This document shows, in pieces, positions 12,699-29,135 of a stretch of DNA of 64,000 bases. Each line of letters starts with the position of its first letter. Position 1 is the first letter of the stretch. The notes beneath the pieces are model-generated. The model was not told where the DNA came from. It made no database searches and saw only the letters and a list, made by a program, of their open reading frames with translations. Source of the stretch: a virus. Where the stretch lies: IMG/VR virus record IMGVR_UViG_3300020391_000004, positions 67,615-131,614 of that record; one strand, 5' to 3'. The position numbers were made by a program, and so were the translations under genes.

Positions 12699-12716
12699 GA
12701 AATACTTTTCTATAGT

Positions 12717-12754
12717 AAAAAGAGCGAGTAACTATATTTATAATTACCCGCTCT
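12717..12754 (-). terminator. intrinsic terminator after AAA ATPase gene
   Basis: AGAGCG-GGUAA / UUACU-CGCUCU stem followed by U-run. Confidence 0.7.
12735..12742 (-). promoter_or_regulatory. T4-type late promoter TATAAATA upstream of fdxA
   Basis: Exact gp55 consensus, located in the loop of the terminator hairpin. Confidence 0.65.
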
Positions 12755-12763
12755 AGTAAATGA

Positions 12764-12803
12764 ATCGCGATCGGAGGAGAGAGAGGAGAGAGAGTCACGC
12801 GAT
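12764..12803 (-). ncRNA. candidate anti-Shine-Dalgarno RNA hairpin (3' UTR of AAA ATPase gene)
   Basis: AUCGCG/CGCGAU stem enclosing CUCUCUCUCCUCUCUCUCCUCC, two tandem complements of AGGAGAGA. Confidence 0.55.
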
Positions 12804-12812
12804 CCAAACTGT

Positions 12813-13859
12813 TTACACTCGCTTCATACAAGTGCTTTCTGCTAGTACCTTCCAATTGCTAGGACTAATCTTAGCAAGGTCGGCTACTTTCAAAGCCATT
12901 CTTAAACTTACTTCCCTGAACTTGTTACAGTTATCAGCGATAAAGTCTATAACTTCTGTTTCTAATTCTTTACTCATATCGTAACCTTTAAATAGATCAC
13001 CTTTATCTGCAATTTGTTTAACTCTAAGAATTTTATCTCTCATAGTATCTAATGTAAGATCCAAATAATGACATCTACTTTGTAGAGCTTCAAGATGATC
13101 TTGTAACTTCTTACTCCTAACATTCTCAAATTTAATGTTAGTAATAAAACAAGCACTGCCTTTAAATTCAAACTTATCTGGTATACCTTCACTTCTTAAT
13201 TTGTTACTTTCGGCATTCCAATATATCATTCTCTTCTTACCACTATCAAGTGCAGCCTTAAGAATGTTAAGTGCAAGATCATCCATTAATACACTATCAC
13301 AGTCATCAAACACTAAAACATTGCCTTTGTCTGAAAACTCATATAACTTTGCATAAAGTCCTAGTGCAGTCATTGCACCTTTAACAACTTCGTACTTACG
13401 TCTGCTACCTGCCATATCACCAAACAAACTACTTTTGTTTAGTTCTTCTTCAACACCATAACTTTTACCAACCCCCGGAGGACCAGTAACAATTAATGCT
13501 CTTATATCACTGTTTACAAGAGACTTAGTCATCTGATCTAATATCTCAAATCTAGTGCCAATTTCTGCAATTCTTTTTGCATCTTGTTCTGCAGTAAACT
13601 TAGGCTCTGCTTTTGCAACTACATCTGCTTTTGCACCTTCTTGCACATTAAAACTATCTTGCTCAACAAACTTAATATCTTCAGGTGTGTTTACTGCAAC
13701 ACGAATTTTTGTAGCCATATCACCAAATCTACAACTACCGTTGACAGTAACAAAACCTCCACCATCTTTTTTACTTTGAAAATTCTTAATTAAAGGAAAT
13801 ACAGTATTCTGTACTGCTTGATTCCTGTAACTACCGTTCTTGACTAATACATATGACAT
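12813..13859 (-). CDS. AAA+ ATPase family protein
   Basis: Walker A GPPGVGKS, Walker B VLVFDD, arginine-finger region SRC. Confidence 0.85.
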   Translation of the reverse strand: MSYVLVKNGSYRNQAVQNTVFPLIKNFQSKKDGGGFVTVNGSCRFGDMATKIRVAVNTPEDIKFVEQDSFNVQEGAKADVVAKAEPKFTAEQDAKRIAEIGTRFEILDQMTKSLVNSDIRALIVTGPPGVGKSYGVEEELNKSSLFGDMAGSRRKYEVVKGAMTALGLYAKLYEFSDKGNVLVFDDCDSVLMDDLALNILKAALDSGKKRMIYWNAESNKLRSEGIPDKFEFKGSACFITNIKFENVRSKKLQDHLEALQSRCHYLDLTLDTMRDKILRVKQIADKGDLFKGYDMSKELETEVIDFIADNCNKFREVSLRMALKVADLAKISPSNWKVLAESTCMKRV

Positions 13860-13885
13860 TCATCTCTCCATTTATGTCTTTGTTT

Positions 13886-14167
13886 TTAACTATAATTAAT
13901 AATAACATCTTTATTATCTGTGTCAACCTTAAAACCTAAATATTCTGCAGTTTCATAAATTAACTTTAATCTTTTTACACCTATACCAGGGATTTTAAGT
14001 AATTCTTTTTGAGTAATAGTTAAATCATTATAATTACATTCAAACTGACTGGCAAAAAAATCCATCTTTCTAAGTTCACCTGGAGTTTTACCTAATACTG
14101 CAAAATCAGACTTTAATTTATTATAAGGTATACTTTCATATTTACGAGCAAAATCACCAAATGTCAT
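13886..14167 (-). CDS. small protein with RNA polymerase alpha-CTD/HhH-like motif
   Basis: NDLTITQKELLKIPGIGVKRLKLIYE resembles the alpha-CTD dL...eLl.i.n.G.KS..EI pattern. Confidence 0.45.
   Translation of the reverse strand: MTFGDFARKYESIPYNKLKSDFAVLGKTPGELRKMDFFASQFECNYNDLTITQKELLKIPGIGVKRLKLIYETAEYLGFKVDTDNKDVIINYS
13899..13926 (-). promoter_or_regulatory. early promoter TTGACA-N16(TGT)-TATTAT
   Basis: Read directly; one of 8 copies. Confidence 0.85.
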
Positions 14168-14406
14168 TATATCATCTCATCTTGTGAATATTTGTAAGTA
14201 TTATATTGATCTTTGTAACATTCTACAAAATTGTAAATAGTTTTAACAAGTTTTATATCCTTAACACCACCAGTTGATTGGGCAATATCCATCATACTTA
14301 GTAGATCTTTTTCTGCACTACTTATTGAATCATGCTTACCAGTTTCATATTCAACTGTAACACTATCTTCTTTAACTACACCTGTTAATTGTATTTTCTT
14401 TTTCAT
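14167..14406 (-). CDS. hypothetical early protein
   Basis: 79-aa ORF with AGGAGAGA RBS behind an early promoter. Confidence 0.7.
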   Translation of the reverse strand: MKKKIQLTGVVKEDSVTVEYETGKHDSISSAEKDLLSMMDIAQSTGGVKDIKLVKTIYNFVECYKDQYNTYKYSQDEMI

Positions 14407-14421
14407 AAAGTTCTCTCCTAA

Positions 14422-14448
14422 TTTCTAACTATGCTGTTATAATAACAT
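14422..14448. repeat. 27-bp direct repeat (copy at 20411-20437) covering -10 box and leader
   Basis: TTTCTAACTATGCTGTTATAATAACAT is identical at both sites. Confidence 0.9.
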
Positions 14449-14466
14449 CGTTAGGATAGTTGTCAA
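14439..14466 (-). promoter_or_regulatory. early promoter TTGACA-N16(TGT)-TATTAT
   Basis: Read directly. Confidence 0.85.
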
Positions 14467-14467
14467 C

Positions 14468-14899
14468 CTATGTACTGAACTTTTTAATTCTTTTTTCATG
14501 TCTACCACCATCAAATTTTGTTTGTAAAAATGTATCTACAATATCTATTGTATCTGGTTCCAATGTTTGTAATGATCCGCCTAAACATAAAATATTACAA
14601 TTACCATGTGATCTAGCCTGTTCTGCTAATTCAATATTAAAACATAATGCTGCTCTTATATTTCTATGTTTATTTGCAGTAATAGCCATTCCTTGTCCAG
14701 TTCCACAAACTAATATTCCATAATCATATCCATTATGTAGTACGTAGTGTACTACTTTTTCAGCATAGTCCGGATAATCAACACTGTCCTCACTATGAGT
14801 GCCTAAATCAACATAGGCATGTTCTGTACTATCTAAATGTTCTTTTATCCATTCTTTTAATTTATAACCACCGTGATCACTTGCTATTGCTATTCTCAT
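14468..14899 (-). CDS. rpiB: ribose-5-phosphate isomerase B
   Basis: IASDHGG, DYPDYA, GILVCGTGQGM, ANKH, HGNCNILCLG and GGRHEKR; ATGA overlap with the upstream gene. Confidence 0.95.
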   Translation of the reverse strand: MRIAIASDHGGYKLKEWIKEHLDSTEHAYVDLGTHSEDSVDYPDYAEKVVHYVLHNGYDYGILVCGTGQGMAITANKHRNIRAALCFNIELAEQARSHGNCNILCLGGSLQTLEPDTIDIVDTFLQTKFDGGRHEKRIKKFST

Positions 14900-27939: not shown

Positions 27940-27967
27940 AGCATAACACATATATAGGATGTGTCAA
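27940..27967 (-). promoter_or_regulatory. early promoter TTGACA-N16(TGT)-TATGCT
   Basis: Read directly. Confidence 0.75.
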
Positions 27968-27989
27968 CCTGGTTGCGAATCTTTTTAAA

Positions 27990-28140
27990 CAATCAGTACC
28001 GCTTTCGCCTACGGTACCGGGAACAATCTAGTTTTCGGTCTATGGGTTCCCTGAGTAGTTCCTCACTTGTAAACCCCATACAGCTTCTCCCGCAGGTCCG
28101 TCACTGTATCCTAACCGTTACATTATCGCCGCATTGTATA
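27990..28140 (-). ncRNA. candidate multi-stem, pseudoknotted structured RNA
   Basis: GC-rich non-coding block with at least 5 complementary segments, a GAAA-capped stem and a G-U pair that favours the minus strand. Confidence 0.55.
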
Positions 28141-28167
28141 ATCCTTTAACATTGTTAACTACCATTT

Positions 28168-28545
28168 TTAAGCCGCCGCCTTAAACGCTGTCTGCACATA
28201 AGGCTTATTCCATTTACCTATATTAATATCATTATAGTAAGCAGTATGAAAGTAATCACTTTGATAATCTGATTTATCAAACCATTTAGTACCTTTCATA
28301 GCTGTAATTAATTCTAATAAAAACTGTCTAGCATCTCCTGAATACCAACTGTCTATATGATATACATTAACCTGTGTATAACCATCTCCATGTGAATGAT
28401 CGAACTCTATAGGACCTGATTGTATGTTAACAACCAAACTCATATGATGCTTAATAGCAATAGAACCTTTCATGCCATACTTCTTAAGTACTGCCTTAAT
28501 GCCAGGTGCTAGTTCTGCTTTATCTTTTTGACTTATATATGCCAT
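28168..28545 (-). CDS. conserved hypothetical early protein (SDYQSDYFH)
   Basis: AGGAGAGA RBS behind an early promoter; ends KAAA. Confidence 0.8.
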   Translation of the reverse strand: MAYISQKDKAELAPGIKAVLKKYGMKGSIAIKHHMSLVVNIQSGPIEFDHSHGDGYTQVNVYHIDSWYSGDARQFLLELITAMKGTKWFDKSDYQSDYFHTAYYNDINIGKWNKPYVQTAFKAAA

Positions 28546-28577
28546 GTAGTTCTCTCCTAAACTCTAATTATGTATAT

Positions 28578-28605
28578 ACTATAGCACACTATATGCTTTT
28601 GTCAA
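28578..28605 (-). promoter_or_regulatory. early promoter TTGACA-N16(TGC)-TATAGT
   Basis: Read directly. Confidence 0.8.
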
Positions 28606-28822
28606 CCCCTCGCATATCAGCATACTCTCTACGATAGCTGTGTATACGATCTTCAGTCTCCTTGTTAGCGAAGACTCCGACATCGTTCGCAGGATCGTAC
28701 TCTACATAACTACGGCGGTCATGTACTGGATGTACAAAGTCCGGCTTGCCCCATACCCGTACTGCTGATACATACTCTGTGCTGCGAAAGCCAAAGAAGT
28801 GTACTAGTCGTCCTCTATACAT
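28589..28822 (-). CDS. 77-aa hypothetical early protein (VHFFGFR...WGKPDFVH)
   Basis: Start at 28822 with AAGGAGG RBS; first gene of the early series. Confidence 0.7.
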   Translation of the reverse strand: MYRGRLVHFFGFRSTEYVSAVRVWGKPDFVHPVHDRRSYVEYDPANDVGVFANKETEDRIHSYRREYADMRGVDKSI

Positions 28823-28844
28823 AACCGCCTCCTTGTGTAGTGCA

Positions 28845-28909
28845 GCACTGTGCTGGTTAAACACAGTGCCTAGTCAATCGACTTCGGGGATACGATTACG
28901 GATTGACTA
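28845..28909 (-). promoter_or_regulatory. structured 5' leader with two hairpins
   Basis: 9-bp IR at 28871-79/28901-09 and 8-bp IR at 28845-52/28862-69, between promoter and RBS. Confidence 0.7.
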
Positions 28910-28914
28910 TATAC

Positions 28915-28942
28915 ATAATAGCATAATCTATATATTTGTCAA
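28915..28942 (-). promoter_or_regulatory. early promoter TTGACA-N16(TGC)-TATTAT
   Basis: Read directly; outermost copy. Confidence 0.8.
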
Positions 28943-28944
28943 TA

Positions 28945-29135
28945 TCAAATTTTGATTTTATCAAAAAATATTTTTTTAGAAAAACCAAAACCAAACCAGG
29001 GTGGGGGCAGCATATAGCGCCAGCACATCAGATTCGGTGACCCTTGCAAAAATTGTAGCAACTTTTTCGCCATCCGACACTAGACCCAAAAAATTTTCTG
29101 CGTATATTTTTTTCTCAACCTAGCACAAACCCCCA
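28945..29135. other. non-coding divergence point between early and late modules (possible genome end, pac or ori)
   Basis: A/T tracts, AAAACC repeats and a GGGTGGGGG run; transcription diverges on either side. Confidence 0.4.

Follow-up and report, generated by a model that had tools for sequence, protein, structure and literature searches.

Regulation through bacterial 3'-untranslated regions (3'UTRs) rests on few cases. In the icaR mRNA of Staphylococcus aureus, a UCCCCUG motif in the 3'UTR pairs with the Shine-Dalgarno (SD) sequence of the same mRNA and lowers initiation (PMC3868564). The Cuckoo/CcsR RNAs of Alphaproteobacteria form two to four adjacent hairpins with variable stems and CCUCCUCCC in their loops (PMC4615179), and in phage T4 the early genes are shut off post-transcriptionally by RegB and RegA (reviewed in PMC3014915). 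Here, a hairpin behind a phage AAA+ ATPase gene was analyzed in the last 64 kb (hereafter the window) of the 131.6-kb IMG/VR record IMGVR_UViG_3300020391_000004, which belongs to an uncultured marine giant phage and is estimated to be 38% complete. We consider it probable that this hairpin (12761-12806) is the local form of an element present across the ATPase family, which is located in the 3'UTR and pairs with the SD sequence of its own mRNA and the private bases beside it (together called the tag).

Every gene from 12.7 to 29 kb lies on the minus strand, and the features of this region are read on that strand. The ATPase gene is flanked by a promoter and, behind the hairpin, by a terminator, all in this order on one strand and with predicted transcript ends:

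13899..13926, minus strand: early promoter of sigma-70 type for the ATPase gene (TTGACA, 16 nt, TATTAT; read 13926-13899), with a promoter at the same place in nearly all relatives
13863..13869, minus strand: SD tag GGAGAGA (7-mer) of the ATPase gene, complementary to the hairpin loop
12813..13859, minus strand: gene of a 348-amino acid (aa) AAA+ ATPase, NrdC.10-like, phrog_1250, with its own promoter and terminator
12761..12806, minus strand: 3'UTR hairpin with a 9-bp stem (12806-12798 with 12769-12761) and a 28-nt loop
12754..12717, minus strand: intrinsic terminator of the ATPase transcript, a 15-bp hairpin and T run, with ATAAATA (12735-12741) in its loop

The gene is apparently monocistronic. 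The hairpin lies 6 nt past the stop codon, immediately 5' of the terminator, and its loop contains a 22-nt pyrimidine (CU) run (12794-12773) with two tandem complements of the sequence AGGAGAGA, as had been described in an earlier reading made from the sequence alone (the sequence-only reading). Over its full length, the protein shares 35.7% identity with NrdC.10 of Acinetobacter phage Acj9; its identity to a protein of phage PA5oct is 40.5%. Its AlphaFold model, with a predicted local distance difference test score (pLDDT) of 83.5, resembles AAA+ proteins generally (Cdc6/Orc1, NorQ, RuvB, RFC), and the model matches gave no ATPase name more precise than AAA+.

More than 580 relatives of the ATPase were found in viral contigs, the best 80 of which were examined. 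Complementarity statistics were obtained for 58 distinct loci by taking the longest run of Watson-Crick pairs that the SD window (-25 to -1) could form with the 60 nt following the stop codon. In about half of these 58 relatives, the first 60 nt past the stop codon show complementarity to the gene's own SD region. Match lengths in the relatives range from 8 to 12 nt; a match of at least 8 nt was present in 40% of the loci compared with 1.8% of shuffles, and one of at least 9 nt in 22% compared with 0.6%. The tags fall into classes that differ outside the GGAG core, namely GGAGAGA(GA), GGAGGAGCAA, (A)AGGAGUAACUA, AAGGAGCAA, AGGAGCUA, UAACGGAGU(AU) and CUAGGAG, and each time the 3' element matches its own tag class, in some relatives of the AGGAGUAACUA class with a G.U pair. 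At least six classes were identified in which tag and 3' element change together, including the clade-specific bases outside GGAG. Cognate pairs of tag and element average 8.7 nt, whereas cross-class pairs average 6.0 nt.

In the closer clades, a hairpin with a CU-rich loop is located directly after the stop codon, and its stem varies by clade yet remains paired, with at least 12 compensated versions and 17 G.U pairs. As these G.U pairs would mismatch on the opposite strand, they point to a sense-strand RNA. Other clades have a short unpaired stretch at or just past the stop codon in place of the hairpin. The element is always positioned 0-45 nt from the stop codon, overlapping it in two clades, and the anti-tag is locally unpaired in every case, either in a closed loop or in an open stretch. 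When the whole mRNA of about 1.15 kb was folded, the SD region paired with the 3' element in the minimum-energy structure of 20 out of 23 element-bearing relatives, while head and tail were paired through the SD in none of five element-free relatives. Because an SD-complementary element recurs with its own gene and these folds join head and tail, the conserved core would be a pairing within the same mRNA, between 5' and 3' end as in icaR. Judged from these comparisons, tail and tag very probably pair to control translation.

A CU-rich loop could also bind a protein (Rho, ribosomal protein S1, a phage factor) or serve as a plain stability or termination element, with its likeness to an SD complement arising via the 16S rRNA tail. 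C-rich and G-poor RNA suits Rho loading, and in more distant relatives a plain GC hairpin with a T run is found at the place of the hairpin, the T run of the second hairpin of close relatives being poor. However, the complementarity reaches clade-specific bases that are unrelated to 16S rRNA (UAACGGAGUAU, GGAGUAACUA, AGGAGCUA) and change in step, and in several clades the elements are short and not CU-rich, so that a role as protein site or as stability or termination element appears very unlikely. Terminal inverted repeats of a mobile gene were also considered as a source of the head-to-tail complementarity and dropped, as the ATPase gene belongs to the syntenic core and has a promoter of its own in every case.

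Several observations weigh against a conserved pairing of tail and tag. The simple counts are inflated by kinship among the sequences, and the element is missing in one subclade (L030, L035-L044) and in T4-like homologues (Acj9), and is therefore dispensable. In the window itself, the hairpin alone is no more stable than shuffles (z -1.4), the SD-loop match within the ATPase mRNA extends over only 7 nt and the fold of this whole mRNA does not choose the SD-loop pairing.

In phage PA5oct (L136; NC_071039.1, 248735-249889), which can be grown on P. aeruginosa PAO1, the homologous ATPase gene has its own TTGACT/TATACT promoter, and a 7-nt stretch beside the SD is complementary to the 3' arm of the post-stop hairpin (9 bp with two G.U), which may be a weak version of the same element. 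In many relatives (L011-L014, L017 and others), the gene after the ATPase terminator, whose protein has a GDSF-type motif at its start, begins 7 nt past a TGnTATAAT box, so that its mRNA would lack a leader; a -35-like TAGAC is included in what forms the conserved 'loop' of the second hairpin there. A 234-aa gene tried as an anchor was rejected, the relatives obtained being not syntenic.

According to the proposed mechanism, the exposed pyrimidine stretch after the stop codon would base-pair with the SD and the private flanking bases of the same mRNA. After transcription of the 3' end, the tail would fold back onto the ribosome-binding site and, as in icaR, presumably lower further initiation, thereby limiting or timing ATPase synthesis. 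Terminating ribosomes, being near the element, could hold it open, and closure would then depend on translation. The sign of the effect might also be positive, if head-to-tail closure shields the mRNA from nucleases or recycles ribosomes and raises expression. The constant proximity of the element to the stop codon, up to the overlap in two clades, would place the terminating ribosome near the start site, and in the Bacillus subtilis hbs mRNA, ribonuclease action and mRNA stability are reported to depend on an interaction between 5'- and 3'-UTR (PMC5737220). Since the pairing covers the SD itself, it should, however, exclude the 30S subunit, and icaR, the one closely matching case that has been studied, is repressive (PMC3868564). 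An activating role is thus unlikely.

The tag is not restricted to the ATPase gene. AGGAGAGA is present in 10 copies in the window compared with 1.22 expected, and 10 copies were reached in 0 of 100 shuffles. Eight copies are on the minus (coding) strand, 2-5 nt 5' of the ATG of small genes, which bears out the private extended SD that the sequence-only reading had assigned to the early genes, and the remaining two are the plus-strand image of the hairpin loop. The eight tagged starts are:

14412..14419, minus strand: AGGAGAGA tag of a 79-aa early gene, ATG at 14406, promoter 14466-14439 upstream
19848..19855, minus strand: AGGAGAGA tag of a 70-aa gene, ATG at 19845
20099..20106, minus strand: AGGAGAGA tag of a 79-aa gene, ATG at 20093
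26451..26458, minus strand: AGGAGAGA tag of a 98-aa gene, ATG at 26446, promoter 26505-26478 upstream
26733..26740, minus strand: AGGAGAGA tag of a 73-aa gene, ATG at 26728
27914..27921, minus strand: AGGAGAGA tag of a 120-aa gene, ATG at 27910, promoter 27967-27940 upstream
28551..28558, minus strand: AGGAGAGA tag of a 125-aa gene, ATG at 28545, promoter 28605-28578 upstream
37670..37677, minus strand: AGGAGAGA tag of a 138-aa gene, ATG at 37665, with the best predicted duplex with the loop (-23.2 kcal/mol)

Gene 20392 carries a variant form of the tag. The region from 13.9 to 29 kb has eight minus-strand copies of the stereotyped early promoter (TTGACA, 16 nt including TG, TATTAT or a near variant). 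Four tagged genes sit behind such a promoter and four others are inside operons without a promoter of their own. As the latter are promoterless and the leaders of the tagged genes are unlike one another except for the tag, the tag appears to be more than a by-product of copied promoter cassettes. With regard to the predicted duplex energy with the loop, the tagged genes are at the top of 582 candidate starts in the window, and the cognate ATPase start reaches -13.0 kcal/mol compared with a mean of -5.7 kcal/mol for the 582 starts.

Many genes are tagged in the window's clade, whereas deeper clades carry the tag only on the ATPase gene or also on one further small gene, and because of this confinement the ancestral role would have been gene-specific. 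Several clades have a clade-specific tag on one to eight other early genes, which are non-homologous between clades, and in two relatives (L011, L013) other early genes match the loop over 10-11 nt, which is more than the cognate gene does. Given that at least eight other early genes in the window's clade carry the tag, an action in trans is possible, and an effect on the tagged early messages of this clade would be a reasonable extension of the pairing within the ATPase mRNA. The loop is here enlarged and contains two anti-tags in tandem; either the whole tail or a cleaved fragment of it may damp other tagged mRNAs in trans.

The sequence-only reading had gone further and proposed a translational early-to-late shut-off run by the hairpin RNA and a second RNA of about 94 nt (described below). 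In such a programmed circuit, both RNAs would act in trans and silence all tagged early mRNAs, and late mRNAs would escape by being leaderless or by having a different SD. The tagged early genes and the two anti-tags in the loop would suit such a circuit, as would the early genes of L011 and L013 that surpass the cognate gene in their match to the loop. The same is true for the SD of the late virion genes, which is mostly AGGA followed by A or T and not AGGAG, and for three late genes that are predicted to be leaderless. Nevertheless, the hairpin is transcribed early, from the same kind of promoter and at the same time as its supposed targets, and in deeper clades these targets shrink to the ATPase gene and at most one other. 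The 94-nt RNA moreover matches a single leader, both being lineage-specific, and the majority of the late genes possess an SD. A shut-off of this kind is rather improbable. What persists of it is the loop as probable functional partner of the tagged ribosome-binding sites, as loop and tag covary; the global switch does not, since the family-conserved feature is the pairing in cis. Just as improbable is a phage-private ribosome-site code, in which a stable anti-tag RNA cut from the ATPase 3'UTR would accumulate during infection, titrate the tagged messages and time the early-to-late switch. Late messages with an AGGA-type SD or without a leader would then be immune, and the 94-nt RNA would provide a second, gene-specific layer. 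In T4, RegB cuts GGAG in early SDs and RegA is a translational repressor. Searches for the RegB and RegA families in the 131.6-kb fragment found none, in a record that is about 38% complete and with control genomes being equally silent.

The late genes were inspected for their own start signals. ATAAATA is present in 12 copies on the minus strand, nine of which are within 40 nt upstream of gene starts, mostly of virion and packaging genes. In three cases (starts 40453, 49049 and 51038), the arrangement is exactly ATAAATA-N5-ATG, the start sites being predicted:

40451..40465, minus strand: ATAAATA, 5 nt, ATG; predicted leaderless start of a 300-aa gene
49047..49061, minus strand: ATAAATA, 5 nt, ATG; predicted leaderless start of a 686-aa gene
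51036..51050, minus strand: ATAAATA, 5 nt, ATG; predicted leaderless start of a 141-aa gene that immediately precedes the large terminase gene

Transcription beginning 6 nt past the motif would agree with the +1 of T4 late promoters. As a complete 8-mer, the T4 motif TATAAATA is rarer in the window than expected (4 copies compared with 19 expected). The predicted leaderless starts reflect a putative ATAAATA late promoter, and nothing was found that ties them to either RNA. The claim that several late genes begin exactly at the predicted late +1 and lack an SD holds for these three genes, but all of them are outside the interval 12715-28945 for which it had been made, and most late genes have an SD. 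The ATAAATA in the ATPase terminator loop stands 36 nt before a gene for an FdxA-type ferredoxin (12336-12698, minus strand; NCBIfam E 1.6e-41, above the cut-off), which is without an SD. Upstream of the gp32-like gene (45814-46845), a promoter with TTGACT, 17 nt and TATACT (46939-46911, minus strand) is found in addition to ATAAATA, which suggests dual early and late expression.

The second RNA of the sequence-only reading, a module of about 94 nt at 19.5 kb with a complementarity of 13 nt to the leader loop of an early gene, is present in the window with an exact match:

19569..19597, minus strand: promoter of the candidate small RNA (TTGACT, 17 nt, TATAAT), an 11/12 sigma-70 match
19469..19562, minus strand: candidate RNA of about 94 nt, with a 5' stem-loop containing the 13-nt seed (19529-19541), a terminator hairpin and a U9 tail at 19469
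28823..28908, minus strand: structured leader (two hairpins) of the 77-aa gene 28589-28822, with the promoter at 28942-28915 and the 13-nt target (28883-28895) in its first loop

The candidate has its own promoter and an intrinsic terminator, whose hairpin comprises 9 + 6 bp with U9. Its fold z-score is -4.9 and its only open reading frame has four codons. An antiterminator alternative fold was considered and dropped, as only 4 bp are possible. The complementarity of 19541-19529 with 28895-28883 is exact, both being on the minus strand, and the stacking energy of the 13-bp duplex is -27.2 kcal/mol compared with -18.3 +/- 1.7 kcal/mol in shuffles, none of 400 reaching it. These sequence features are explained most simply by a lineage-specific small-RNA gene at 19469-19597, the 5' stem-loop of which can pair with the leader loop of the 77-aa gene.

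A regulatory pairing of these two RNAs is weakened by the finding that, if only length is considered, 24% of shuffles yield a 13-nt match. Relatives in which both flanking genes are retained have an unrelated spacer or none in place of the 94-nt RNA, and the structured target leader is absent from all 27 examined relatives of the 77-aa gene. The RNA was found only in two strain-level contigs (L122 and L124), without any change; overall divergence there is 3.7%, and other parts of that alignment also include equally long unchanged stretches. Neither the small-RNA seed, scanned as an exact pattern in viral contigs, nor the leader, scanned likewise in metagenome contigs, gave a match. The 57-aa neighbor has no relatives in viral contigs but 15 clusters in a large protein collection, and since these clusters let the locus be compared, the RNA module can be called lineage-specific. 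That RNA and target are both lineage-specific fits a young pair. Of the covariation expected in relatives by the sequence-only reading, the part concerning hairpin loop and tag was recovered, whereas seed and target of the 94-nt RNA are not conserved outside this lineage.

Alternatively, 19469-19597 could be a cis-acting leader or attenuator, or a leftover promoter-terminator cassette, in front of the 57-aa gene, the 13-nt match being fortuitous. The chance frequency of such a match by length would agree with this, and the 28 nt that separate the terminator from the 57-aa gene include no promoter. In addition, the four-codon reading frame, with a GGGGA box, enters the 5' arm of the terminator, and relatives with the same flanks carry an unrelated 130-nt spacer. 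By contrast, the match is GC-rich and stronger than in all 400 shuffles, and it connects the apex of one hairpin with the loop of a second. The body of the RNA is also unchanged in the two strain-level contigs, though such stretches occur elsewhere in the alignment. We regard this alternative as quite possible, if somewhat short of an even chance.

In relatives of the 77-aa gene, a sigma-70-type promoter is followed by a short leader or by none. In L089-L094 and L138-L142, these genes start 6 nt past a TATAAT/TATACT box, corresponding to a leaderless early mRNA, or have a leader of about 18 nt, and among the relatives examined the 86-nt two-hairpin leader occurs only in the window's phage. The 57-aa protein (19267-19440, minus strand) is encoded just past the candidate RNA; its relatives L132-L135 have a weak hit to the SutA RNA-polymerase-binding domain (PF20661), and in L132 the gene is directly upstream of the ATPase gene.

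The window has a GC content of about 33%, and its proteins include UvsW-, UvsX- and gp32-like proteins, a T4-type large terminase and a 1075-aa tail sheath. The nearest large terminases are those of the PA5oct group of jumbo phages (52% identity). Judged by its proteins, the phage is a jumbo relative of PA5oct-type phages and not a typical marine T4-like phage. Megablast of 8 kb against cultured phages gave no match, and nothing was found in Rfam searches (gathering and relaxed thresholds) or in scans for transfer and transfer-messenger RNAs. A block of about 9.7 kb (13930-23600) with a TctA gene, a gene for a GNAT-like protein, many small genes and the 94-nt RNA is missing in the closest ATPase relatives (L009-L013), in which its flanks are directly adjacent; it is a hyperplastic region bordered by predicted stereotyped early promoters. 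The TctA gene (15982-17304, minus strand; Pfam E 1.4e-64) encodes a full-length membrane subunit of a TctA-family tripartite tricarboxylate transporter in the early region, is also present in relative L115 and is likely an auxiliary metabolic gene. In metatranscriptome run X1, contigs identical to parts of the ATPase gene, the 295-aa gene and 20062-20421 were found; they cover neither the hairpin nor the 94-nt RNA and are therefore uninformative on the expression of either.

The element would add to the few cases of bacterial 3'UTR regulation one that is conserved with covariation across hundreds of uncultured jumbo phages and is attached to a gene with NrdC.10 homologues in T4-like phages. 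If it also acts in trans, phages would mark their own messages with a private address next to the SD and regulate them together, which would bear on the timing of giant-phage programs and on the design of orthogonal translation control.

When compared with T4, the locus resembles the RegB/RegA system in that early genes are singled out via their ribosome-binding sites, but RegB and RegA are protein-based. Similarly, ATAAATA is found upstream of virion and packaging genes like the T4 late promoter TATAAATA, but here the first T is not kept and three genes would be leaderless. The locus may also be likened to the PeSL cassettes of T4-type phages: its hyperplastic early region has stereotyped early promoters at eight places, a stem-loop abuts or overlaps the -35 box of the next promoter, and the 9.7-kb block 13930-23600 is variable. 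In the available portions of the reports, PeSLs are described as recombination or transcription modules, with no anti-SD loop or tag pairing (PMC2839356, PMC4122927).

The hairpin shares with the Cuckoo/CcsR RNAs a C/U-rich, anti-SD-like motif that is shown in a loop and kept while the stems vary (PMC4615179). It differs from them in that it is one hairpin instead of two to four, holds CCUCC but not the CCUCCUCCC nonamer, and is located behind a phage AAA+ ATPase gene, where its loop tracks a phage-private tag and not a fixed motif. As a single hairpin without the nonamer and without an Rfam match at gathering or relaxed thresholds, it does not belong to this family. In literature searches no phage example of such a 3'UTR element was found. 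The kind of regulation is nevertheless known, from icaR, from the 5'/3'-UTR interaction reported for hbs (PMC5737220) and from the C/U-rich anti-SD loops of the cuckoo family (PMC4615179). The closest likeness is to icaR: both have a pyrimidine anti-SD motif in the 3'UTR, which in the phage is a predicted one, that can pair with the SD region at the head of the same gene, and a block of initiation would be expected from this (PMC3868564). The phage-encoded 3'UTR is about 100 nt long compared with about 390 nt in icaR, and its anti-SD is presented either by a large hairpin loop or directly at the stop codon. The pairing, whose effect here is predicted by analogy, takes in private bases beside the SD and, unlike that of icaR, covaries across uncultured phages.

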